Shown piece by piece: positions 16,341 through 64,000 of a stretch of DNA of 64,000 nt. The stretch lies in the sequence record OQ417970.1; one strand, written 5' to 3'. Every line of letters starts with the position of its first letter. The stretch's first letter is position 1. The notes under the pieces are model-generated. The model was not told the DNA's origin. It searched no databases and saw only the letters and a program-made list of their open reading frames with translations. Source of the DNA: Mycobacterium phage prophiT46-2. Position numbers and translations under genes: made by a program.

Positions 16341-16630
16341 GTCGGAACTGGCAGGCCCGCGCTGTGTGCCGGGACGAAGACCCCGAGCTGTTCTTCCCTG
16401 ACCCGTCCGACACCGTGACTGCGCGGGCAGCCCAGAGGGTGTGCGCCAAATGTCCTGTGAGGCCGCAGTGCCGGGCCGCCGCCAGCGCGAGACGCGAACC
16501 GTACGGGATCTGGGGCGGCGTCAACCGCGAGCTGGACGCGGACAGGCGACGACGATCCGCCTTTTCACCCCCGACGAATGAAATCAGCACACCGCCCACC
16601 ACCCCGACCACCGCAGAGGCAGCACAGTGA
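16337..16630 (+). CDS. whiB: WhiB-family transcription factor
   Basis: Four Cys (C-x-C ... CAKCPVRPQC) and the GIWGG turn typical of WhiB (Wbl) proteins. Confidence 0.75.
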   Translation: MSRNWQARAVCRDEDPELFFPDPSDTVTARAAQRVCAKCPVRPQCRAAASARREPYGIWGGVNRELDADRRRRSAFSPPTNEISTPPTTPTTAEAAQ

Positions 16631-17760
16631 CGACCCGCGAGTACGCCAAAAACCTGTTCGCCCAATGGTCCGACGACGACTTCTGCAACCAACCGATCTT
16701 CGACAAGCTGTTCTTCCAGGTCCTCAACGGGCAGCGCGCCGTCAATGCCGCCGGCATCCAGCCGATCAACTTCACCCGCTGGCGCAAGGCCATGCGCGAC
16801 GGCGAACACCTGCCCGCCGTGCGCGATCTGCAGGCTGCGCTGGTGCGCATGGAGCGCCGCGGTTTCGTGTTCACCGACGAGGACACGGGGGAGGTGCTGG
16901 TGCGGTCCCGGATCCGCCGCGACGAACTGGACAAGCAGCCCACCATGTTCCTGGCGGCGCTGCGCCTCCTGGCCGTCATCGACTCACCCAAGTTCGCCGC
17001 CGTGCTCGCCGACGAGCTCGACCGTATGGACGTCCCGGAGGTGAAGGGGGACAAGGACTACGCCAAGCGTCTGCGCGACTCCCTCAATGACACCCATAGG
17101 GCCGCCCGCCTACACCTCAAGACCCTGGCCGACGGATACCCGCAGCCGTTCCCCGAACCGTTCGACGGACTCACCGAGGGACCCTCCCAGGGACCCACCC
17201 CTAGACCCTCTACGGGCCCCTCCGAAGGACCCACCTCGGGAGGGTCTACGGGACCCACCCCGCGACCTGGGGAAACAGGACCCACCCCGGGACCCTCCCC
17301 GAGACCCACCCAGGGACCCTCGGGTTCTGGTTCAGGTTCAGGTTCTCTCACCTTGGTAACTACTCAAGTGGGGGGTACGCGTGCGCGCGCACACGAGACC
17401 GCCGAACCCACACCAGCACCAGACGAACCCCCCACACGATGCAAAGCCCACCGCGACTACCCCGACGCCATCGAGGACAACTGCGGCCCCTGCGCCAACT
17501 TCCGCAAGGCACACGAACGCTGGACCGAACACCAAACACGCGCCCAAGCCCAAGCCAGGGCCGACGCCCTCCACCAAGCCGCCCAACTCCGCGCCCACGC
17601 CATCGCCACCTGCGACCTCTGCGACCCAGACGGCTACCTCCCCGGCACCAGCACCGTCTGCAACCACAACCCCACCCAAGCCGAAACCAACGCCCGCGGA
17701 CGCCAACTCGTCCACGCCGCACTCCGCAGCCGAACCCAGCAGGAGACCGACGATGCGTGA
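16627..17760 (+). CDS. hypothetical early protein with a central (G/S)PTPRP low-complexity repeat linker and a C-terminal Cys motif
   Basis: 377 aa; repeats GPTPRPSTGPSEGPTSGGSTGPTPRPGETGPTPGPSPRPTQGPSGSGSGSGS encoded by DNA tandem repeats around 17160-17340; C-terminal CDLCDPDGYLPGTSTVCNH. Confidence 0.55.
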   Translation: MTTREYAKNLFAQWSDDDFCNQPIFDKLFFQVLNGQRAVNAAGIQPINFTRWRKAMRDGEHLPAVRDLQAALVRMERRGFVFTDEDTGEVLVRSRIRRDELDKQPTMFLAALRLLAVIDSPKFAAVLADELDRMDVPEVKGDKDYAKRLRDSLNDTHRAARLHLKTLADGYPQPFPEPFDGLTEGPSQGPTPRPSTGPSEGPTSGGSTGPTPRPGETGPTPGPSPRPTQGPSGSGSGSGSLTLVTTQVGGTRARAHETAEPTPAPDEPPTRCKAHRDYPDAIEDNCGPCANFRKAHERWTEHQTRAQAQARADALHQAAQLRAHAIATCDLCDPDGYLPGTSTVCNHNPTQAETNARGRQLVHAALRSRTQQETDDA

Positions 17761-18037
17761 CCCCTACGACCCCTGGGCCGACGAACGCACACAAGCCCAA
17801 CCCGACCTCACCGACATCGCCCAAGCCGAAGCCATAAGCGCCTGCCAGCTCTGCGACACCCACGGCCACCGAGATGGACTCCCATGCCGCCACATCGACC
17901 ACGCCGCAGCCGCCAAACGAGGACTCGCCACCATCCGCGCCCAAATGGGCTGGAACACCCCCACAGGCACAACCACCCCACAAACCAGCCAAAAACCGCC
18001 CCACGACGCCACCAGCAGCCAAAAAACACGCCTGTAA
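17753..18037 (+). CDS. small protein carrying a second copy of the CxLCDxxG ... C..H motif
   Basis: ATG 17753 overlapping the upstream stop; CQLCDTHGHRDGLPCRHIDH. Confidence 0.4.
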   Translation: MRDPYDPWADERTQAQPDLTDIAQAEAISACQLCDTHGHRDGLPCRHIDHAAAAKRGLATIRAQMGWNTPTGTTTPQTSQKPPHDATSSQKTRL

Positions 18038-18984: not shown

Positions 18985-19070
18985 AATCGGCGATATCAGC
19001 GGTGAAATGCGTAAATACAGTCTAACAAGAGTGGTTGACTAATTGTTAGACAAGGTTCTAATGTGGTCTA
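18985..19070. promoter_or_regulatory. AT-rich promoter with overlapping inverted repeats: TTGACT-18bp-TAATGT, IR GTCTAACAA/TTGTTAGAC (19011-19042), IR GGTTCTA/TAGAACC (19045-19066)
   Basis: About 140-bp low-GC intergenic region directly upstream of the 19097 operon; palindromes overlap the -35/-10-like hexamers. Confidence 0.55.
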
Positions 19071-19946: not shown

Positions 19947-20153
19947 ATGAGCGATCACAGCTCGCCGCAAGCCGCTCCCACCGAGGGGGCGGCTTCGCCG
20001 CGTTTCATGCGCCAGCTGGTCATTTGCCATCCAGAAATCTGGGCCGCGCTTGAACGGTGGGCCGCCGACCACGCCTCGGTGTTCTTCGAGATCCCCACGG
20101 GCGCTGACGGCATCCCGACGTACGGCTTCGGCGTTCGACTGGAGCAGCCATGA
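19947..20153 (+). CDS. hypothetical protein (alternative start 19914)
   Basis: ORF ending with an ATGA overlap into the recombinase gene. Confidence 0.4.
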   Translation: MSDHSSPQAAPTEGAASPRFMRQLVICHPEIWAALERWAADHASVFFEIPTGADGIPTYGFGVRLEQP

Positions 20154-20716
20154 CGGGGCAGCAGGTCGGCTACGTCCGGGTGTCGACCCTCGATCAGAAC
20201 ACCGAACGTCAGCTCGACGGCATCGAGGTTGATAAGCGGTTCGAGGACAAGGCCAGCGGCAAGGACACCGCCAGGCCGGCGCTCACCGAGGCGCTCGGTT
20301 ACGTACGTGAGGGCGACACTCTGGTGGTTCACTCGATGGATCGGCTGGCGCGGTCGCTGGAGGATCTACGGCGCACTGTGCGGGAGTTGACCGCTCGGGG
20401 TGTGCGGGTCCACTTCGTCAAGGAGAATCTGACGTTCACGGGCGACGATTCGCCGATGTCCACGCTGCTGCTGTCGATGCTGGGCGCGGTGGCTGAGTTC
20501 GAGCGTTCGATGATCCGGGAGCGACAGCGTGAAGGCATCGAACTCGCGAAAGCCAAGGGCGTGTACAAGGGCCGCAAGCCGGCGCTGACGGATGAGCAGA
20601 CCGCCGCGGTGTTGGAGCGGCTGGCCGGCGGCGAGCACCCAGCCGATTTAGCGCGCGAGTTCGGGGTATCGCGGGCGACGGTCTACAACGTACGGGCACG
20701 AGCTTTGGAGAGCTAG
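20150..20716 (+). CDS. small serine recombinase (resolvase/invertase family) with C-terminal HTH
   Basis: GYVRVSTLDQNTERQ catalytic-serine motif, resolvase core, C-terminal HTH LAREFGVSRATVYNV; 188 aa. Confidence 0.85.
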   Translation: MTGQQVGYVRVSTLDQNTERQLDGIEVDKRFEDKASGKDTARPALTEALGYVREGDTLVVHSMDRLARSLEDLRRTVRELTARGVRVHFVKENLTFTGDDSPMSTLLLSMLGAVAEFERSMIRERQREGIELAKAKGVYKGRKPALTDEQTAAVLERLAGGEHPADLAREFGVSRATVYNVRARALES

Positions 20717-22087: not shown

Positions 22088-23542
22088 GTGTTCCCCATGG
22101 TCTCCGGGGACATCGATTCAGGCAACCATTACAAGGCATACTGGTGCCGTGTACTGCAACACCAGCCCAACAAGCCGGTAGTTCAGCGCGCACGTCAGCG
22201 CGTCCGTGCCGCACTGGTCGCGGTCGCAGTCCTCGCGGTTGGGGCTGGCACGGTTCAGGTCGCGACACTGCACACGGCGCCGGGCAGTGGCTTCTCCACG
22301 CTGGCGACGGTGGGCGCGGAACCGACCGGCCCGCCGGGACCGACCGGCGGCATGACCGACGGCGGGGGCTCTCAGTTCCAGCCTCCAGCGCAACCGCCGT
22401 CAATGCCGGACTACCAGGGTGGCAACAACTTACCGCCTCTGGATCAGAACTCGGGCATCTCAATTTACAATTCCGGCAATCCGCAAGCACCGCAGCAGGT
22501 TCCGGGTCAGCAGGGCGGGCAGCAGCCGCAGCAGAGCTGGGATCAGCCCGCGCACGGAACCCAGATGCCCAATTACTCCACGGCGCCGGGGTACACCCAG
22601 GGGCCGGGAAAGCCGAACCCTGATTATCAAGCGCCGCAGCAGAGTTCACCGCAGCAGGGTCAGCAGTCCCCGCAGCAAGGGCAGCAGCAGTCTCCGCAAC
22701 AGAATCAAGAGCAGCAGCAGAACCAGCCGGAGCAACAGCAGCAGGAGCAGCAGGACCAGGGTGATCAGCAGCGGCAGCAGCGCTGCGAGGCGATGTCGCA
22801 ACAGTTGGACCAGATCACCGAGACCGCCGGGCAGGTCGCCGATGTTGTTCAGCAGGTCGGTGATGCGGCCGAGGTCGTGCTGCCCAAGGGCGGTGGTGGA
22901 TCGCTGGGCCCTGACGGTGAACGTTCGCCGGGCCGCGTACCAGTTCAACCGCTCGAGTGTGGTGACTGCCCGCCAGATCGGAAGCCACAGAATCCGTTCT
23001 GCAAGCTCTTCCCCAATGCAGGCGTCAAGCAGACGTGCGAGGGCTTCATCGACGACTGGATGGAGAACTTCAAAGACTCATGCGAGCCCGGCAAGCCGAA
23101 TTGCAAGGGCAAGGTTCCGATCTGCTATCCACGAGACGTGACCAATCCTTCCGACGCCATGAAGAAGAGTATGCAAGATTATATTGACGGCGGAAATAAA
23201 CTCATCAGGGATAATGAAAAACTCGGTGGTCAAGTCATCAAACGTTCAACCAACGGTTTGAGCGGCAGACGTGAGGCCGATAAAAAGCTGGCCAATTTGA
23301 GATATGGCGAGAAAGCGTTTGACGGTAAGGCGTACGGTCATATACCGGACCTGACATGGATGGGAACAATCCTTGATGAACGTGATGTCATTCCGTTCGA
23401 CAAGGACCTCAATTCCTCTATAGGCGGTCAGTCCAATAGATTCAAGACCGATTTTCAAGCTACAGAGTTTGTCGTCGGGTACTGGGGCTCCGTGGTCGGT
23501 TCCAAGAACACGCAATGCCTCGCGCCCGAGGCGGTCGCGTGA
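22088..23542 (+). CDS. secreted Gln/Pro-rich protein with a Cys-rich middle region and a low-GC C-terminal domain of unknown function (candidate secreted effector or polymorphic toxin)
   Basis: Signal-like RARQRVRAALVAVAVLAVGAGTVQVATLHTA; long Q/P low-complexity tract (CAG-rich DNA 22600-22800); 10 Cys between 22780 and 23130; the last third of the gene drops to roughly 40-50% GC. Confidence 0.6.
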   Translation: MFPMVSGDIDSGNHYKAYWCRVLQHQPNKPVVQRARQRVRAALVAVAVLAVGAGTVQVATLHTAPGSGFSTLATVGAEPTGPPGPTGGMTDGGGSQFQPPAQPPSMPDYQGGNNLPPLDQNSGISIYNSGNPQAPQQVPGQQGGQQPQQSWDQPAHGTQMPNYSTAPGYTQGPGKPNPDYQAPQQSSPQQGQQSPQQGQQQSPQQNQEQQQNQPEQQQQEQQDQGDQQRQQRCEAMSQQLDQITETAGQVADVVQQVGDAAEVVLPKGGGGSLGPDGERSPGRVPVQPLECGDCPPDRKPQNPFCKLFPNAGVKQTCEGFIDDWMENFKDSCEPGKPNCKGKVPICYPRDVTNPSDAMKKSMQDYIDGGNKLIRDNEKLGGQVIKRSTNGLSGRREADKKLANLRYGEKAFDGKAYGHIPDLTWMGTILDERDVIPFDKDLNSSIGGQSNRFKTDFQATEFVVGYWGSVVGSKNTQCLAPEAVA

Positions 23543-23544
23543 AA

Positions 23545-24060
23545 ATCATGCCTTCAATCAGAGAGAAACTAGGTGGACGCACACGCTTCGCCGCTGTCGC
23601 GCTGGCCTGGGTAGCAACGATTGCCATCGCATCACTGGTGACCTACGTTCTGTGTATGCAGCACCCGAGTGCCACATCCGAGAAATACGACGCTGAAGTT
23701 CGTGCGGTGATCGAGGAGTACATCGACGCCATAAACAGGAGTGATCTTGCGCGTATCGAAGCTCTTTCGACCGGCACGGCAGAAGAGCAGCTAAACCCGC
23801 AATTCAAGGGTGGATACGTCCGCATTATGGCACTAAAGATTGAAGACCACGGCCCGATGCATATTCACGATTTCAGCATTCTGGCACGGGGCGACCTTGT
23901 CTATGATGCGCTCGTCTATACCGAGTTCGAGGACCAGAAAAACCCGAAACCCGAAGACATCTACTACTACACCGGGTCACGAGTTCGGTACAGCATGTAC
24001 AGGCTCAACGGACAATGGAAAGTCATGAGTGTCGAGACATTCAGGGCCGACGCCAAGTGA
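23545..24060 (+). CDS. membrane-anchored NTF2/SnoaL-like protein (low-GC gene; candidate immunity or accessory partner)
   Basis: N-terminal TM FAAVALAWVATIAIASLVTYVLC; NTF2-like pattern (IEEYIDAINRSDLARIEAL ... YRLNGQWKV); AT-rich relative to the surrounding genome. Confidence 0.5.
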   Translation: MMPSIREKLGGRTRFAAVALAWVATIAIASLVTYVLCMQHPSATSEKYDAEVRAVIEEYIDAINRSDLARIEALSTGTAEEQLNPQFKGGYVRIMALKIEDHGPMHIHDFSILARGDLVYDALVYTEFEDQKNPKPEDIYYYTGSRVRYSMYRLNGQWKVMSVETFRADAK

Positions 24061-24605
24061 ACCGAGCCAGCAGCACCGTGATTGTGGGGATAGCGGTTTC
24101 CGTGCTGACGCTGCCGGGCTGCCAGAGCGCCCAGCCGGCAGAGCCTCCCGGACCTAACTACGCGAAGATTCCTGGACAGTTCCCCGAACCCGCGACCACG
24201 ACGACAGCGGGAGCAGAGGACGCCCCGGTGGGCTCATGCGTCAAGATCACCGGGAAACGTACAAACGCGGAAATGGCGCTCACCAAGTGCGAATCCCCCG
24301 ACGCCACACACCGCATCGTTCAGAGGGTCGTAGAGCCCAAAGACTGTGTCCGCGACGTCGATCGGCGCTACTACCGAAACACCTCAGCTGGCGAATGGAC
24401 CGCATGCCTGGACCTGTACTGGGCCAACCCCGGCTGCCTGAGCATCACCGACGAAGCCACCCGCGCAGTCCCATGCAACGACACCACAGCTCCAAACCGA
24501 TTCCGCGCTACCAAACTGGTAGTCGGCGTATCGAATGGCGACATGTGCAAGGGATATGCACATCCGGTGCGTCGGTTCACTATCTGTACGGAAATGCAGA
24601 AGTAG
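24015..24605 (+). CDS. lipoprotein (lipobox LTLPGC); alternative start GTG 24078
   Basis: VIVGIAVSVLTLPGCQSAQ signal peptide plus lipobox; 8 Cys in the mature part. Confidence 0.55.
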   Translation: MESHECRDIQGRRQVNRASSTVIVGIAVSVLTLPGCQSAQPAEPPGPNYAKIPGQFPEPATTTTAGAEDAPVGSCVKITGKRTNAEMALTKCESPDATHRIVQRVVEPKDCVRDVDRRYYRNTSAGEWTACLDLYWANPGCLSITDEATRAVPCNDTTAPNRFRATKLVVGVSNGDMCKGYAHPVRRFTICTEMQK

Positions 24606-24838
24606 GGCGGCTTGGTCGTCAAACTGCTGAGCTTCGCTCGGGTGCTGTTTATTGTGGTGTGGGTGGTCGAAACGGGGCTGTGGCTGTTCACAGATACTTC
24701 ATTGTGGAGTGTTAACCAGTACCTGTTTCCGGCACTCATGCTGTGGGTTATCGCTGATGCCACCGTGAAAGCCGCGCGGTCGCAATAAGAGCCCTCGCTA
24801 CGAGATCCGTTTCATCGTCTGCTGCCAGACTGCGGCGC

Positions 24839-26065
24839 GTGCCCGAATACACGCAGCTTGCCGTCGATGACCTGCACACCTTCAAAGGCAACCCGCGCCG
24901 CGGCGATGTCAGCCAGATCGCCGTTTCGTTGACCAAGCACGGCCAGTACCGGCCGCTCGTGGTGAACCGGGGCAGCCAAACCGGCCGCCGTAACGAGGTG
25001 CTGGCCGGCAACCACACGTTGATGGCTGCACGATCGCTCGGCTGGAGCACGATTGATGTCGGGATCGTGGATGTCGATGAGGACACCGCGCGCTCGATCG
25101 TGGCGGCCGATAATCGGCTGGCCGACCTGGGCGAGTACGACACCTCGGACCTGTATCAGCTGTTGTCGTCGATCGAGGACCTGGGCGGAACCGGTTACGG
25201 GCTCGAGGATTTGTTGGCGATGGAGCGCGATCTTTTCCCGCCGGAGCCGCTGACCGATCCAGATGATGTTCCGCCGGCACCGGAGTCGCCGGTGTCGCGC
25301 CCGGGGCAGTTGTGGTCGTTGGGGGAGCATCGGCTGCTGGTCGGATCGGCGACGGATTTGGAGGGTGTGCGGGTGCTGTGTGGTGATGTGCAGCCGGATT
25401 GCGTCTGGACGGACCCGCCTTACGGCGTGGACTATGTGGGGAAGACGAAGGCTGCGCTGCGGATCCAAAACGACGTGACTGGTGGGCTTTTCGAGCTGCT
25501 GAAGGCGGCGTTCGATGTGTTGGCCGCGGTGGCGCGGCCGGGCGCCCCGGTGTACGTGGCTCACGCCGACACCGAGCGCACAACGTTCGAGTCCGCGATG
25601 GAGAGCGCCGGGCTGCAAGTGCGTCAGAACCTGGTGTGGGTGAAGAACATGATGGCCCTTGGCCGTTCGGACTACCAGTATCGGCACGAGCCCATCCTGT
25701 ACGGGTTCGTCCCGGGCGGCGAGGGCCGATTGGGACGCGGTGGTGATCGCTGGTTCGGCGACAACAAGTCCACCACGGTGTTTGAGGTGGATAAGCCTGC
25801 CCGCAACGCCGAACACCCGACGATGAAGCCCGTGGCGTTGATCGACGCGATGCTGGCCAACAGCCTGCGGCCAGGTGGTGTGGTGCTGGATCCGTTCTCG
25901 GGTTCGGGTAGCACGCTGATCGCAGCGCATGGCCGCCAGTCCCGGTGCTTCGGTGTGGAATTGGATCCTCGGTATGCCGATGTGATTCTGCGACGGTTCG
26001 AGGAGCACACGGGCATCGTTCCAGAGCTCGACAGTGTCCCGGTGTCGTTCGCGGGCGCAGCCTGA
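24839..26065 (+). CDS. ParB-like nuclease domain fused to a DNA N6/N4 methyltransferase
   Basis: N-terminal ParB/Srx-like segment (FKGNPRRGD ... LAGNHTLMAA); methyltransferase motifs DPPYG (IV) then DPFSGSGST (I), i.e. beta-class order. Confidence 0.8.
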   Translation: MPEYTQLAVDDLHTFKGNPRRGDVSQIAVSLTKHGQYRPLVVNRGSQTGRRNEVLAGNHTLMAARSLGWSTIDVGIVDVDEDTARSIVAADNRLADLGEYDTSDLYQLLSSIEDLGGTGYGLEDLLAMERDLFPPEPLTDPDDVPPAPESPVSRPGQLWSLGEHRLLVGSATDLEGVRVLCGDVQPDCVWTDPPYGVDYVGKTKAALRIQNDVTGGLFELLKAAFDVLAAVARPGAPVYVAHADTERTTFESAMESAGLQVRQNLVWVKNMMALGRSDYQYRHEPILYGFVPGGEGRLGRGGDRWFGDNKSTTVFEVDKPARNAEHPTMKPVALIDAMLANSLRPGGVVLDPFSGSGSTLIAAHGRQSRCFGVELDPRYADVILRRFEEHTGIVPELDSVPVSFAGAA

Positions 26066-26069
26066 CCTC

Positions 26070-27599
26070 ATGTCCGCTGTGTTGAGTCTGGCGGCTGCTC
26101 GGTATGTGCGGGTGGCACGCGCCCGTCGACGGCCGGGGAGCCCCGCTGAGTTGGCGCGCCGTCTCGACACGAAGTTCCGTGTGACACCGACGATCCGGCT
26201 GCTGTCGGACCTCGCGGTGCGATCGGTCAGGGAGCCGGATCAGCGAGATGTTGTCAGCACTCCGCCGCGGACGGGGAAGTCGCAGTCGCTGGCGATCTGG
26301 ACGCCCGCCTGGGCGTTGGGCGAAAACCCGGATCTGAAGATTGTGATCGTGTCGTACTCGGATGAGTTGGCGCAGACGCATTCTCGTGAGGTCCGCAAGA
26401 TCATCAACGAGCACGCCGAGTTCCTGGGATACCGGCTGGCGCGCGATAAGACGTCGGTGGGTCAGTGGCGGGTGGAGGGCCACGAGGGCGGGGTGCTGGC
26501 CACCGGTATCAACTCGGGTGTGACGGGTTTCGGCGCCGACCTGATGATCATCGATGACCCCGTCAAGGATGCGGCGGAAGCCGACTCGAAGGCGCATCGG
26601 CGGCGCGTGCTCAACGAGTACCAATCGACGTTGTCGACGCGTGTGCATCCGGGCGGCTCCGTCGTGGTGGTGATGACGCGCTGGCATGAGGAAGACTTGG
26701 CCGGGGCGCTGTTGAAGCAGGAGCCGGACCGGTGGCGGCGCACCAACATCCCCGCCGTCTCGGACCCGAAGATCCCCGACGCGCTCTGTCGGCCTGCTGG
26801 TGTGGCGATGATCAGCGCGTTGGGATTCACGGCCGAGCATTTCGCGGCGACACGGCGCACCGTGGGGGAGCGGGTGTGGTTCGCACTGTATTGCGGAGAG
26901 CCCACGGCACCAGCCGGCGGGCTGGTCAAGCAGAAGTGGTTGGACGATGGGCGGCTCCTACTCGCACCGTCGCGGCCGGTGTTCACTGTGGTGGCGGTAG
27001 ACCCGTCCGATAGCGGGTCGGGCGACTCGTGCGGTCTGGTCGCGACGTCGCTCACAGGGCAGGGCGTGGTGGCGTTGATCGCGGACAAGTCCAAGCCGAT
27101 GACATCGGACGAGTGGGCGCGTGAGTCAGTGCGGTTGGCGATCGATGTAGGTGCCAGCGAGATCGCGGTGGAAGGGTTCGCGGCCCGCGAGACCTACACG
27201 CGGGTGGTCAAGGAAGCGATCACCCGTGCCGAGGAGAACGGCGCACTGAACCGGCCGATCACGGTGTCGTCGTGGCCGCCGAAGGGCCGACCGCGCGTGG
27301 GGGATGCAGTGGCACGATCGGCCGCGCTGTTGCAGGCATTGGAGGTCGGGACGTGCCGCCTGGCCGGGCATTTCCCCGAGTTCGAAACAAAGGCGGTCGC
27401 GTGGCAGGCCGGACAGCACCAGCCGGACAACCTGGCGGCGTTAGTGATTGGGCACGATGTCTGCGTGCACTCGGCCGGGTTGGAGTGGGACATCTCAGCG
27501 CCGCTGGTCGACGGCGCACTCGGCCCGACTGCTCGCACTGCTGGCCCCACTGGTTCGGTAGTGGACCTCACCGATTGGATGTCACGCCGGATCGGCTGA
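26070..27599 (+). CDS. terL: terminase large subunit
   Basis: Walker A PPRTGKS, Walker B LMIIDDP, C-terminal nuclease region; ATG 26070 just after the upstream stop. Confidence 0.85.
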   Translation: MSAVLSLAAARYVRVARARRRPGSPAELARRLDTKFRVTPTIRLLSDLAVRSVREPDQRDVVSTPPRTGKSQSLAIWTPAWALGENPDLKIVIVSYSDELAQTHSREVRKIINEHAEFLGYRLARDKTSVGQWRVEGHEGGVLATGINSGVTGFGADLMIIDDPVKDAAEADSKAHRRRVLNEYQSTLSTRVHPGGSVVVVMTRWHEEDLAGALLKQEPDRWRRTNIPAVSDPKIPDALCRPAGVAMISALGFTAEHFAATRRTVGERVWFALYCGEPTAPAGGLVKQKWLDDGRLLLAPSRPVFTVVAVDPSDSGSGDSCGLVATSLTGQGVVALIADKSKPMTSDEWARESVRLAIDVGASEIAVEGFAARETYTRVVKEAITRAEENGALNRPITVSSWPPKGRPRVGDAVARSAALLQALEVGTCRLAGHFPEFETKAVAWQAGQHQPDNLAALVIGHDVCVHSAGLEWDISAPLVDGALGPTARTAGPTGSVVDLTDWMSRRIG

Positions 27600-61229: not shown

Positions 61230-61535
61230 TTAGGGGTAGATGTGGTACTGGGGTTGCCCGAGCGGAGTCGGGGGAAACTCGTTCGGATCGACGGGGTAGC
61301 AGCGGCCCGTCGACGGCACCCAGCCGCTGACCTGACCGTACTGGCCGAATATCGGACCAGACGCGGAGCTAAAGCAGCGGTCCCATGTCCCGTCGGCCTT
61401 GATCGGCCCGTCGCAGTACTGCGCAAACGGTCCTGTCTCGCATCCCGCGCTGGCCGACGGGGCAGACCCGACGCCAGCGCCGGCGGCGATGAGAGTGGCA
61501 GCGACTGCCAAGTAGATTCGCCCCGGCTTGAACAT
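61230..61535 (-). CDS. small secreted Cys-containing protein
   Basis: Signal peptide MFKPGRIYLAVAATLIAAGAGVGSAPSASAG; 4 Cys. Confidence 0.5.
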   Translation of the reverse strand: MFKPGRIYLAVAATLIAAGAGVGSAPSASAGCETGPFAQYCDGPIKADGTWDRCFSSASGPIFGQYGQVSGWVPSTGRCYPVDPNEFPPTPLGQPQYHIYP

Positions 61536-61618: not shown

Positions 61619-62353
61619 CTAATGCGGGACTTCGTCAAGCCCGTTTTCGCGCAGTGTGGCGGTCATAGCCTCCACGACCCGCTCCGCGGGCCAATCATCT
61701 GGCGCGGAAATCAGTGTGCCCCCGGCCAGTTCGGTAGCGGTGAGCCGGTCGACAAGATGGTTGATTTCCCCAACTTCGTCGCTGATCCACGTGCGGTAGC
61801 CGACGCCGATCTTCCAGTTTCCGCGACGAGCGAGCTGCCTGACGGGATCGTCTGTGAGAACCAACATCGCGGGCTCCCACGCCTGAGTAACCGCTCGACA
61901 GACCGCGTCGCCGTCGGCGCTCGTGAGCGCTCCTGTATACATCTCGCGCAACTCGATATTGAGGCGACGCCGCGGAAGGCGAGTACCCACCGCCGGATAC
62001 CCCGCCGCGATCCATGCTCGCAGCCGAACTCGCGAGCTGGCACCCGATACCACAAAGGAGTATCCCTCATTTGGCAAGATGTCGCCGATCTCTTCCGATG
62101 CGCCGACCAGCTCGCGCACTGGGTTGCTCCGCACGATGCCCGCCAGTACGTCCAGGGAGCCGGCCCACTCTTGACCTTCGGTTAGTCGCCATTCTGAAAT
62201 ATCGAAGGCCGCTCCAAACTGGCTGAGCAAGGCGTCTGTGTGCGCGGCAATCCACTCTGGAGATTCACCACACCCCACCCAGACCGCGCGGGCATTCGCA
62301 TCCCGGCCGCCCCATACGGGCGTTGTGGTTGTTGTGGTGTTCATGGTGGCCAT
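61619..62353 (-). CDS. candidate immunity protein for the upstream toxin
   Basis: 244-aa cytoplasmic protein encoded 4 bp downstream of the toxin stop on the same strand. Confidence 0.45.
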   Translation of the reverse strand: MATMNTTTTTTPVWGGRDANARAVWVGCGESPEWIAAHTDALLSQFGAAFDISEWRLTEGQEWAGSLDVLAGIVRSNPVRELVGASEEIGDILPNEGYSFVVSGASSRVRLRAWIAAGYPAVGTRLPRRRLNIELREMYTGALTSADGDAVCRAVTQAWEPAMLVLTDDPVRQLARRGNWKIGVGYRTWISDEVGEINHLVDRLTATELAGGTLISAPDDWPAERVVEAMTATLRENGLDEVPH

Positions 62354-62356
62354 ATC

Positions 62357-64000
62357 TTAGTTCCCCTGCGGTGCCGTGGGTGTGTAGATGACTTCAACTC
62401 CATCGATGTCGTTGTCGATGAACAGCTTTCGTAATGCAAAGGCCCCATAAGGGTCGGAAACGTGCCACTCCAACCTTGCGTCAGGTGGCAGCGCGGCCAA
62501 CTGTCTGTCGACCTGTTCGAGCGCCTTCATCGCCCGCCCGGTCCAGTACGTGCTATCAGGCGCGAACGCCATGCCCCGAAAGCCGTCTTTCGCTTCGAGA
62601 AAGACTTCTTGCGGGCCGCGATGAGTGTGCCCATCGAAGGCGACGGGCGCTCCCGTATCGGGGTCATGCTGTACCCACTCGGGCAGTGCCCCGCTAGGTG
62701 TTCGTTCAACTCCGCCGATCTGCTCCTGGTATGGCATCCAGTCTTTGTCGAAGTTGTGGTTGATGTGTTTCCAACCGGGCTCGGTATCGCCCTTGCTCCA
62801 AGTGGGCTCGGGGGTGCCAGGTGGCCAGCCGCCGGGGTGGTGCGGATCGCCCGAGGTGTAGTGCCGACCGGCGCTCGGATCGAAAGCGTCAGGCGTGGGT
62901 GGGTGATGTTGGGGCGGCGGGGGCGGTGAGTGATCTGGAGGCGGGGCCGGGTGGTCGACAGCTGGCGGCGAGTGATCGGCCACCGGGCCGGGATGGGCGC
63001 TCGGAGGATCGACGGATGTGTGCGCTGCCGAGGGCGCGTCGTGGGGAAGCCCTGGCGTGTCGGGCAGACCACCGCGACCAGCAACGGACGCGTCCTCCAG
63101 TCCTATCCGGCCGAAGGCGCCCTCGCCGCCTAATGGCACCGTCGTCCCGGCTATGGCCGCGTCGACCGTGGTCTTGCCGATGTTTTCGGGGATCTTCTCA
63201 GGATGCTGGTACGAGGTGACGGCCTGGTCGATTACGTTCTTGGCGTCTTCGGCCATCGCAGCACCGGGGAACAGTGTGCGTTCGATCTGGTGCTCGAGGC
63301 CCTTTGCGCTGTTCGTCCATGATTCGGCGAACTTGTCGGCGCCGTTAAGGCCCGCCTTGCTTTTGACCTCGTCGATCGTTCCGTCGATGCGGTCGTTGGC
63401 GCCTTTGAGGAACTGTTTGGCCACGCCAGAGCCGAAGCCGTCCTGCGGTTTGGCAGCGCCGGGCATCTTGTCGAGCGCCCCGATCGTCCCGGTGAGGCTG
63501 CCCGCCTTGCTGGGGTCGATGGTCAACTTGTCGCCCGCGCTAGGTGTCTTCGGGTACCACTCCTTGTAATCAGCCACCGCCGCGGTGCTTGCGGGTTTGG
63601 TGTCGCCCGCACCGGCGATGTCCTGTATGCCCTCAACAATCCCGTGGGGCTTGCCGCTGGCCGCGGTCGCCGTGGACAAGCCCTCGCCCGGTGTCGGGTG
63701 CACGGCGTCGCGCAGAATCTTGCGGCCATCGACCAGTGCGGTTTTGGGGTTGATGCAGCCGGTGATCTTCTGGGCTATGGCGTCGGCCTGGGCCTTGAGG
63801 GTTTGACAGCCCTTGTCCCACTGGGCGACATACCCTTTGACTTGGCGCTCAATATCGGCCACATGTTCGCGGTTGCGGGATATCGACTCATCGCTCTCGC
63901 CCTCGGCGGGGTGGTAGGCCATGTTGTAGTTCTGGTCGATCGAGACACCCTGGTCCTTGTGTGCCAGCACGCTCTCGATGAGACGTTGGCCATTGACCAG
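62357..64000 (-). CDS. polymorphic-toxin-like secreted protein, C-terminal part (gene start lies beyond the window end)
   Basis: Long Ala/Gly-rich helical region, His/Pro-rich linker (HSPPAVDHPAPPPDHSPPPPPQHHPPTPD), then a about 200-aa globular C-terminal domain; located at the prophage end after the lysis genes. Confidence 0.5.
   Translation of the reverse strand: MVNGQRLIESVLAHKDQGVSIDQNYNMAYHPAEGESDESISRNREHVADIERQVKGYVAQWDKGCQTLKAQADAIAQKITGCINPKTALVDGRKILRDAVHPTPGEGLSTATAASGKPHGIVEGIQDIAGAGDTKPASTAAVADYKEWYPKTPSAGDKLTIDPSKAGSLTGTIGALDKMPGAAKPQDGFGSGVAKQFLKGANDRIDGTIDEVKSKAGLNGADKFAESWTNSAKGLEHQIERTLFPGAAMAEDAKNVIDQAVTSYQHPEKIPENIGKTTVDAAIAGTTVPLGGEGAFGRIGLEDASVAGRGGLPDTPGLPHDAPSAAHTSVDPPSAHPGPVADHSPPAVDHPAPPPDHSPPPPPQHHPPTPDAFDPSAGRHYTSGDPHHPGGWPPGTPEPTWSKGDTEPGWKHINHNFDKDWMPYQEQIGGVERTPSGALPEWVQHDPDTGAPVAFDGHTHRGPQEVFLEAKDGFRGMAFAPDSTYWTGRAMKALEQVDRQLAALPPDARLEWHVSDPYGAFALRKLFIDNDIDGVEVIYTPTAPQGN

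Follow-up and report, generated by a model that had tools for sequence, protein, structure and literature searches.

A probable polymorphic toxin-immunity operon with a signal/anchor helix and a Q/P-rich stalk in the Mycobacterium abscessus prophage prophiT46-2

prophiT46-2 is a 65,252-bp prophage of cluster MabL from Mycobacterium abscessus strain T46 (PMC9934374). We analyzed 64,000 nucleotides of this prophage (from sequence record OQ417970.1; we call this whole stretch "the window") and focused on three adjacent genes, which we will refer to as A, B, and C. They lie mid-genome, between the early genes and the methylase and terminase genes (Table 1), and the product of gene A is identical to gp46 (WJJ56240.1). 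In GenBank, relatives of the three genes are annotated as "hypothetical", "membrane protein", "oxidoreductase", or "lipoprotein LpqN". We consider it likely that A-B-C is an operon for a polymorphic toxin-immunity system that is exported without the ESX/WXG100 route.

An earlier note on this sequence, which was made from the letters alone, had described the open reading frames (ORFs) of these genes, and they are present as it described, with refined starts for genes B and C. Based on alignments of homologues, gene C most likely starts at the GTG at 24057, where it overlaps the stop codon of gene B by 4 nucleotides, and not at 24015. By the same kind of evidence, gene B most likely starts at the GTG at 23539 (a 4-nucleotide GTGA overlap with the stop codon of gene A), or else at the ATG at 23548. 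The 4-nucleotide overlaps at both the A/B and the B/C junctions indicate one translationally coupled operon. When we scanned for promoter and terminator consensus sequences, we found no promoter-like site and one weak hairpin after gene C (24627-24641), neither of which was above chance.

Table 1. Features of the A-B-C locus. Positions are those of the window; aa, amino acids.
Feature	Position	Strand	Description	Basis
Gene A	22088..23542	+	484-aa exported polymorphic toxin (predicted)	ORF; exact match to gp46; PHROG 30921/35557; stalk-family alignment
Signal/anchor helix of A, aa 41-61	22208..22270	+	hydrophobic	hydropathy peak 2.13 at aa 41-59; N-terminal alignment
Stalk of A, aa 62-232	22271..22783	+	Q/P/G-rich	composition; 92-97% identical to T48-1 and 79-1 stalks
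Junction of A, aa 233-338	22784..23101	+	Cys233, helix, GGGG motif, Cys-rich pre-toxin segment (CGDC)	alignments
C-terminal toxin domain of A (tip), aa ~339-480	23102..23527	+	predicted ββα-type DNase; about 145 aa	
Gene B	23539..24060	+	membrane-anchored NTF2-like protein, candidate cognate immunity protein	transmembrane helix ~23587-23655; NTF2-like domain ~23686-24057
Gene C	24057..24605	+	LppU-family lipoprotein, last gene of module	lipobox LPGC 24111-24122; 8 further conserved Cys
Low-GC segment	22991..24040	.	spans toxin tip and gene B	GC 0.521 vs 0.644

In the protein encoded by gene A, an Arg-rich segment precedes the hydrophobic helix. This segment has RR in most homologues and R-V-R in the T46-2 allele. 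The stalk that follows the helix (170 amino acids with 47 Q, 27 P, and 24 G) ends at a conserved cysteine, Cys233, in the sequence QQRC; the entire protein has 10 cysteines. Similarity to other alleles breaks off within the junction, at around residues 297-300. Direct searches of Pfam, PHROG, and NCBIfam with A gave no functional name: PHROG 30921 matches the full-length protein and PHROG 35557 matches the N-terminal part only, and the function of both is given as "unknown". The earlier note had suggested an export signal of the Sec type and not of the WXG type, and the hydrophobic signal/anchor helix agrees with this. Pfam has no WXG100 match to A, which also led us to reject the idea of a hidden WXG100 domain in the 40-residue N-terminal extension. 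The neighbors of A are B, C, and small hypothetical ORFs, with no adjacent WXG100 gene.

To gather related loci, we searched with lipoprotein C and then ran hidden Markov models (HMMs) of the stalk and of B on the loci that we fetched. (A word-indexed protein search with the stalk returned only short fragments.) Homologues of gene C were found in 14 genome loci from Mycobacteroides, Mycolicibacterium, and Mycobacterium, in 17 phage records, and in 21 IMG/VR contigs, and the stalk HMM matched at 45 loci. At 29 of these loci the stalk protein ends in the same kind of C-terminal domain or "tip" as gene A, which we predict to be a nuclease (see below). The remaining 16 tips fall into at least seven sequence groups, including several that are Gly-rich and hydrophobic, one that is β-rich, and one termed "HH". 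Across the family, an N-terminal region of about 235 amino acids is kept. It comprises RR or R-x-R, the hydrophobic helix, the pattern PTGPPGPTGG...QFQPP...DYQGGNN.PP.DQN.GISIYN, and a Q-rich run up to the conserved Cys; past this Cys the alignment diverges completely, and the C-termini are unrelated. A conserved N-terminal trafficking part with alternative, unrelated C-terminal domains is how a polymorphic toxin family should look.

Within cluster MabL, the syntenic slot is occupied by two diverged nuclease alleles in T46-2 and T48-1 and by a Gly-rich hydrophobic tip with a 76-amino-acid membrane protein in T49-1. Some prophages whose C-terminal domains are only 40-68% identical have stalks that are 92-97% identical, so the earlier suggestion of a swapped C-terminal domain on a conserved body was sound. 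However, the tip of T48-1 is not unrelated to that of T46-2: it is a diverged allele of the same tip family, with 37-40% identity.

We also noticed "stalk-only" proteins or remnants of about 100-170 amino acids (P0065 and P0067), which occur in many M. abscessus chromosomes, with one cluster on 285 contigs. One such remnant in M. franklinii (locus L023, 7545-7838) adjoins an LppU-like gene. These short proteins look like decayed or orphaned copies of toxin genes.

The identity of gene B depends on the tip. The HMM for B had a match beside every one of the 29 stalk proteins with a nuclease tip and beside none of the 16 with other tips. Downstream of the other tips are unrelated small proteins, and those that go with hydrophobic tips have multiple transmembrane helices. 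Across pairs of loci, the identity of B is correlated with the identity of the tip (r = 0.87) and is uncoupled from the identity of the stalk. T46-2 and T48-1, for example, are 92% identical in the stalk, 40% in the tip, and 45% in B, while 79-1 and GD43A-5 are 84% identical in the stalk, 91% in the tip, and 93% in B. There is thus a tip-specific, co-varying gene directly downstream of the toxin gene, and given the seven or more other C-terminal groups on the same stalk, the toxin/immunity architecture that the earlier note had recognized is well supported. The immunity role of B itself is putative, as it is based on sequence comparisons.

The locus also stands out in its base composition. The G+C content (GC) of the whole window is 64.2% (the mean across sliding windows is 0.642, with a standard deviation of 0.027). 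The note's drop in GC is real and is the most extreme of the window, whose composition is not uniform: the lowest-GC stretch of 900 bp in all 64 kb starts at 23101 and has a GC of 0.518, or about 4.6 standard deviations below the mean. A two-state likelihood change-point fit yielded the low-GC block that is listed in Table 1. The hand counts in the note (38-50% GC) are realistic for samples of 60 nucleotides, as GC ranges from 0.38 to 0.67 across such windows inside the block, but not as an average, which is 52%. In the entire window, just five 60-nucleotide windows are below 0.45 GC, and two of these are at 23161-23191. (Outside of the cassette, only 18991-19050 and 1-60 are below 45%, and these AT-rich spots are probably intergenic or regulatory.) As had been noted, the drop begins inside gene A, at around codon 300: GC at third codon positions (GC3) is 0.72-0.84 over the first 250 codons but only 0.50-0.54 over codons 351-450. 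GC3 is 0.63 in B and 0.70 in C, as compared to 0.80-0.82 in the resolvase, methylase, and terminase genes on either side.

Nucleotide similarity to the syntenic prophage prophiT48-1 is 84% up to 22977 and is absent from 22978 to 24173. It resumes at 24174 with 70% identity, in the 3' half of gene C, and is 94.5% from 24583 onward. The low-GC block starts at 22991 and ends at 24040, so the compositional and recombinational boundaries coincide. The GC dip in the tip and the downstream gene recurs in nearly all of the related loci that we examined (tips are mostly at 0.48-0.58 and partners at 0.47-0.55, versus 0.60-0.66 for stalks); the exception is the tip of L008, at 0.64. Because the same dip is present in nearly all of these loci, it is a property of the exchangeable unit and not of one recent insertion. 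New specificities arise via recombination just past the stalk, which swaps a low-GC unit of tip and partner. In P0016, a T46-2-like N-terminus is joined to a T48-1-like tip.

The tip had matched nothing that the earlier note could name, and a word-indexed protein search with it gave no match. An exhaustive search with phmmer, using residues 286-484 against 1.84 billion representatives, identified 43 relatives at E < 1e-3, and in about 38 of the 43 the domain is at the extreme C-terminus. The note had recommended looking for this domain on other N-terminal modules, and there are several: RHS repeats or RHS core ends (P0027, P0037, P0044), the PAAR-like domain DUF4280 (P0034, P0046), a Hint domain (P0052), a matrixin-like protease (P0040), and WXG100 plus PT-TG (P0049, whose gene is followed by a SUKH/SMI1-KNR4 immunity gene). 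The C-terminal domain is therefore common to toxins with other delivery modules, and as far as sequence can tell, this spread is the standard behavior of a polymorphic-toxin tip. In proteins that do not belong to the stalk family, the next gene after the nuclease domain is of the SUKH/SMI1-KNR4 type and not NTF2-like (L009, 528-2101; L010, 3501-5003). With SUKH and NTF2-like proteins, at least two unrelated folds have been taken up as partners by the tip domain family.

In an alignment of 35 tip domains, five residues are invariant: H418 (23339-23341), P420, D421, W424, and N442 (23411-23413). G417, S444, Q448, and several aromatic residues are nearly invariant. The resulting motifs are GHxPDxxWxG and (L/V)NxS(I/L)GxQ, which in T46-2 appear as GHIPD, PDLTWMG, and LNSSIGGQ. 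We compared a profile of this alignment to the Protein Data Bank (PDB), and the sole sequence match was a weak one (E = 0.48) to the Ntox15 protein 8fzz, in which HNPDQIAGG and INSSIGSQ are paired with the two motifs of the tip. The Pfam model for Ntox15 (PF15604) gave sub-threshold matches for three of the 35 relatives (the best E value was 1.2e-3), with no protein reaching the gathering score and no match at all for the T46-2 tip itself. If we aligned the tip alignment to 20 PF15604 proteins with hhalign, then the probability was 90.5% (E = 1.4e-6) over 64 columns that span both motifs. H418-I-P-D421 aligns with the HNPD of 8fzz and of the 20 PF15604 proteins, which corresponds to the HxxD motif of Ntox15/Tde. 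Tde requires this motif in order to act as a Mg-dependent DNase (PMC4096383, PMC10470768).

The Ntox15/Tde family includes Tde1 from Agrobacterium tumefaciens and the Tde/Tdi systems of Bacteroidales and Bacillota. It shares with the tip both the H-x-P-D and, about 20 residues on, (I/L)N-S-S-I-G-x-Q. Both occur as C-terminal tips of polymorphic toxins, and SUKH immunity proteins are paired with Ntox15 and with relatives of this tip (PMC3482391). The two families also differ. Tde proteins have a strictly conserved PD(X)3GG motif (PMC13556189), while the family described here has PD-x-x-W-x-G, and the first Gly is not conserved. Tde1 is described as mostly α-helical and as unlike known nucleases (PMC10470768), while the tip is predicted to be α+β with a clear ββα element and is closest to NucB. 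Finally, Ntox15/Tde toxins are delivered by the type VI secretion system and are partnered with Tdi, while gene A has a signal peptide and a stalk and an NTF2-like partner.

The structural comparison is based on an AlphaFold2 model that was computed with the alignment (predicted local distance difference test, or pLDDT, of 94.1; predicted template modeling score, or pTM, of 0.88). In single-sequence mode, the pLDDT was only 36.9. In the model, the His is at the end of a β-strand, a short second strand comes next, and the Asn is in the following helix, which is the ββα arrangement. Foldseek's two best matches in the PDB were chains of Tde1, and these were weak; the best structural match of the tip is NucB, with 15% identity in the structural alignment. 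The ββα element, the His at the end of a strand, the Asn in the next helix, and the similarity to NucB are all as expected for the NucA/NucB fold, although the DNase_NucA_NucB model does not match the tip. The NucA/NucB proteins and the Tox-NucA clade, which have the HNH/EndoVII fold, also share a "GH ... N" signature with the tip. Furthermore, Tox-NucA toxins have Imm-NTF2 and SUKH proteins as partners (PMC3482391), and these are both of the partner types of the tip family. The T46-2 proteins differ from Tox-NucA systems in that they match neither the DNase_NucA_NucB model nor the Imm-NTF2 model.

We predict that the tip is a DNase with a NucB-like fold and that it belongs to a clade, distantly related to Ntox15/Tde, that current models do not cover. 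The relationship and the fold come from the comparisons above, and they make the predicted activity plausible. The note had stated that a match of the tip to a structural phage protein would count against a toxin. Foldseek found no match to the tip among viral predicted structures, so it is not a known phage structural protein. Also, actinobacterial members of the tip family have extra conserved cysteines (C..VC before the domain and another one near its end), and this would fit with folding outside of the cytoplasm.

Since NucB is a secreted nuclease that degrades biofilms, we considered whether A might be a surface-bound or secreted DNase that acts on extracellular DNA, either in biofilms, in neutrophil extracellular traps, or for nucleotide scavenging. 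It would then be a virulence factor that is acquired by lysogenic conversion, and B would be a periplasm-facing inhibitor that acts until release. The predicted location of B outside of the cytoplasm suits such an inhibitor. In streptococci, secreted DNases that are carried by prophages are classic conversion factors, and NucA/Nin of Bacillus subtilis is a membrane nuclease with an inhibitor. However, the same stalk and lipoprotein are also combined with Gly-rich hydrophobic, β-rich, and other tips that are not nucleases and that have small partner genes of their own. This is the signature of toxin/immunity diversification and not of a housekeeping nuclease, and relatives of the tip are found on RHS, PAAR-like, and WXG100 delivery modules together with SUKH immunity genes. 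We view an extracellular DNase as an improbable explanation, but one with some chance of being right.

The protein encoded by gene B has a positively charged N-terminus, one transmembrane helix, and a domain of about 125 amino acids. The note had called it NTF2-like, and we agree: the top 23 matches of a profile of B to the PDB all have the NTF2 fold (best E = 1.2e-3). B also has weak matches to DUF4864/DUF4440 in Pfam and a match to Rv0361_Cterm in NCBIfam that is below the cutoff (4.8e-6). The Pfam models Imm-NTF2 and Imm-NTF2-2 were absent among the matches of B at E ≤ 1. Among documented toxin-immunity pairs, NucA-type toxins occur with immunity proteins of the NTF2 fold, and SUKH proteins occur with NucA as well as with Ntox15 toxins (PMC3482391). 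The homologue of B in prophiT48-1 is gene 45 (L002, 6261-6809), and we reject its annotation as an "oxidoreductase", as it is NTF2-like. It is 138 amino acids as annotated, because the annotated start skips an in-frame 5' extension that encodes the transmembrane helix; the full ORF is 182 amino acids.

Mature lipoprotein C is about 160 amino acids. C scores 42.3 bits against the NCBIfam model for the LppU/SCO3897 domain (NF049863; the cutoff is 25) and 96 bits against the equivalog model (NF049864; the cutoff is 135), so it is not an LppU equivalog. It has no Pfam match and no LpqN signal. We therefore reject LpqN as the identity of C and of gene 46 of prophiT48-1 (L002, 6793-7386), which NCBIfam places with LppU/SCO3897. 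We also rejected the idea that B and C are a spanin-like pair of a transmembrane protein and a lipoprotein, because they lie outside the lysis cassette, because mycobacteriophages use LysB, and because the module is found in loci without the methylase/terminase synteny. Almost all types of tip are accompanied by C, whether the locus is a prophage or chromosomal, and a stalk protein is encoded upstream of it in all of the fetched loci except for L025 and L048, which is truncated. In a plasmid collection we found no homologue of C beyond one weak match from Nocardia.

A gene for an MspA-type porin (PF09203) and a gene for a conserved secreted protein of about 429 amino acids lie upstream of the stalk gene at seven distinct genomic loci (L004, 1953-3988; L007/L008, 1552-3436; L016; L017; L018; and L021). 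The 429-amino-acid protein has a Cys-rich C-terminus and has no match in Pfam or NCBIfam.

The earlier note had taken the lipoprotein for a superinfection-exclusion product. But C comes after the stalk toxin regardless of the tip, even in loci that are not from phages, which makes it a common part of the module and not an independent superinfection-exclusion gene. A broader version of this idea is that the entire module defends the prophage: an envelope-anchored nuclease and a lipoprotein would block or degrade incoming phage DNA, or would alter the receptor or the envelope. This would suit prophage-borne genes that are outside of the structural and lysis genes and that encode membrane and lipoprotein parts, and viral defense has been listed in prophage surveys as one possible role of prophage toxins (PMC10654092). 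On the other hand, the module is also chromosomal, without the methylase/terminase synteny and behind the genes for the MspA porin and the 429-amino-acid protein; the lipoprotein is conserved irrespective of the tip; and the tips that resemble pore formers are ill-suited to degrading DNA. Injected phage DNA is also normally shielded in the tail channel. We think that a defense role is highly unlikely.

We propose that A-B-C encodes a polymorphic toxin, its immunity protein, and an accessory lipoprotein, which would operate as follows. A, with its N-terminal signal/anchor helix, would be moved across the cytoplasmic membrane by Sec or Tat, and the disordered Q/P-rich stalk of about 170 residues would carry the disulfide-stabilized C-terminal domain outward through the envelope. 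The tip would be a metal-dependent DNase of the Ntox15/Tde-NucB kind, with His418 and Asp421 (in GHIPD) and Asn442 (in LNSSIGGQ) as the predicted catalytic residues. B, which is paired with the tip across loci, would be its cognate neutralizing partner, in the form of a membrane-tethered NTF2-like protein. C most likely helps the toxin to reach, cross, or leave the mycomembrane, like the release lipoprotein of colicin operons. The lysogen would probably gain an edge over non-immune relatives, and the toxin might also act on host cells or on extracellular DNA.

The proposed role for C draws on the colicin E operons, in which the gene for a modular toxin that ends in a nuclease domain comes first, that for its specific immunity protein is directly downstream, and that for a lipoprotein, which does not depend on the type of toxin, is last. 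The A-B-C operon has the same gene order and logic: a toxin, an immunity candidate, and a tip-independent lipoprotein. By this analogy, we favor a role for C in envelope passage or release. There are differences as well. The proteins of the two systems have no sequence relationship, C is far larger than the colicin release proteins, and here the toxin has its own export signal and the immunity candidate is membrane-anchored.

Another informative comparison is to CpnT (TNT-IFT) from Mycobacterium tuberculosis, in which the N-terminal domain itself forms a channel and whose export is ESX-dependent. In gene A, the N-terminus is instead a low-complexity stalk, and the candidate channel is the product of a separate MspA-type porin gene, which is present at chromosomal loci only. 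What the systems have in common is an exported mycobacterial toxin with a C-terminal toxic domain, a dedicated antitoxin, and a link to outer-membrane channel function; CpnT has been cited for comparison with prophage toxins (PMC10654092). As proposed for CpnT/TNT and for ESX-secreted prophage toxins, A could be a host-directed effector that is released in macrophages and harms host DNA. M. abscessus is an intracellular pathogen, this kind of role has been considered for prophage polymorphic toxins (PMC8092301, PMC10654092), and an effector from the Ntox15 family is reported to kill fungi (PMC9973263). Nevertheless, the proteins show no sequence sign of eukaryotic targeting. The family is also not confined to M. 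abscessus, as it is present in a metagenome-assembled genome and in genomes that are labeled only as Mycobacterium, Mycolicibacterium, or Mycobacteroides sp., and the existence of a bacterial partner gene that is specific to the tip speaks for bacteria as the target. A host-directed role seems very unlikely to us.

Several observations weigh against our proposal of a toxin-immunity system. B is predicted to be oriented with its NTF2 domain outside of the cytoplasm, which is odd for immunity to a DNase, as the target is cytoplasmic. We obtained this topology for B from T46-2, 79-1, GD43A-5, T48-1 (with the start corrected), L008, and L012-14, and the version of B from L004 has no transmembrane helix. 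Immunity to a DNase is needed in the cytoplasm unless re-entering toxin is intercepted or the enzyme acts outside of cells. The co-variation of the tip and B is from related loci that are not independent, so it is descriptive. The prophage itself has neither an MspA-like gene nor a gene for the 429-amino-acid protein. Also, our proposal does not account for the route by which a folded toxin would pass the mycomembrane and enter the target cell.

A more far-reaching possibility is a previously unrecognized, ESX-independent route of protein delivery across the mycomembrane that is made up of the MspA-type porin, the secreted 429-amino-acid protein, the stalk toxins, and the LppU-family lipoprotein, as a mycobacterial counterpart of contact-dependent inhibition or of colicin release. 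The unfolded Q/P-rich stalk would thread through the dedicated porin, with the lipoprotein as an assembly or release factor, and the prophages would bring only the toxin, the immunity protein, and the lipoprotein and would borrow the porins of their host. This is speculative, and we would sooner bet against it than for it.

Upstream of the operon are a serine recombinase (20150-20716) and small early-region genes. Downstream are a gene for a ParB N-terminal domain that is fused to an N6/N4 DNA methylase (24839-26065) and the gene for the large terminase (26034-27599), which overlap. The ParB-methylase fusion is 96% conserved in the T48-1 and T49-1 prophages. Right after gene C there is a hydrophobic ORF of 58 amino acids (24612-24788), which is part of the backbone shared with prophiT48-1 at 94.5% identity; the annotation of prophiT48-1 has a hypothetical gene of 49 amino acids there. 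This ORF is outside of the exchangeable cassette. Elsewhere in the window, positions 17001-18000 have a strong strand asymmetry (the GC skew is -0.29 and the AT skew is +0.44). We do not consider this to be part of the cassette, as it reflects Pro/Thr/Gly-rich low-complexity coding in the ORF at 16627-17760 and its neighbors.

prophiT46-2 contains a second polymorphic toxin, a protein of 537 amino acids with a Tox-REase-5 domain (62357-63970, minus strand). Its gene is followed, on the same strand, by a candidate immunity gene of 244 amino acids (61619-62353) and a gene for a small secreted protein with a CDGP domain (61230-61535). The position of this toxin near the end of the prophage suggests that it is of the ESX type (PEST). 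Given the Tox-REase-5 toxin and the tip of A, the prophage encodes two nuclease-type toxin systems.

The polymorphic toxins that have been surveyed in M. abscessus prophages all have WXG100 motifs and are classified as PEST1-3 by their ESX secretion motif (PMC8092301, PMC10654092). The PEST cassettes resemble A-B-C in that they are in the same hosts and the same kind of element, consist of a toxin gene and a downstream immunity gene, and have variable C-terminal domains, including Ntox15 and other nucleases (PMC8092301, PMC10654092). They differ in that PEST toxins have WXG100, while A has a hydrophobic signal/anchor and a Q/P-rich stalk and its operon has a trailing LppU-family lipoprotein. 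Also, the PEST cassettes are beside the attachment junction, while A-B-C is mid-genome, before the methylase and terminase genes. We found no paper that links polymorphic toxins to MspA or to LppU in mycobacteria; our coverage of the literature was incomplete, so the description of this module as "undescribed", as in the earlier note, is provisional.

Catalogues of M. abscessus prophages are being made with a view to phage therapy and to the influence of prophages on virulence, and the toxins described so far are the ESX/WXG100-dependent PEST1-3. A-B-C would be a second type of polymorphic toxin in these prophages, one with a signal peptide. The module is in at least 17 deposited prophage records and in 21 IMG/VR contigs, where it is annotated as hypothetical or membrane proteins, so inventories of toxins are incomplete. 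Polymorphic toxin systems as such were already known; what appears to be new here is the trafficking module and the unmodeled clade of nucleases. The tip defines this GHxPD clade, which is missed by the current Pfam and NCBIfam models and whose members in other phyla belong to toxins of the RHS, PAAR-like, Hint, and WXG100 types. A periplasm-facing immunity candidate alongside a DNase-like toxin is unexpected, and it will be informative whichever way it is resolved. Finally, how proteins pass the mycobacterial outer membrane is an open problem, and a toxin family that has an ordinary export signal and whose genes repeatedly occur together with those for an MspA-type porin and a conserved lipoprotein may provide a genetically tractable handle on it.

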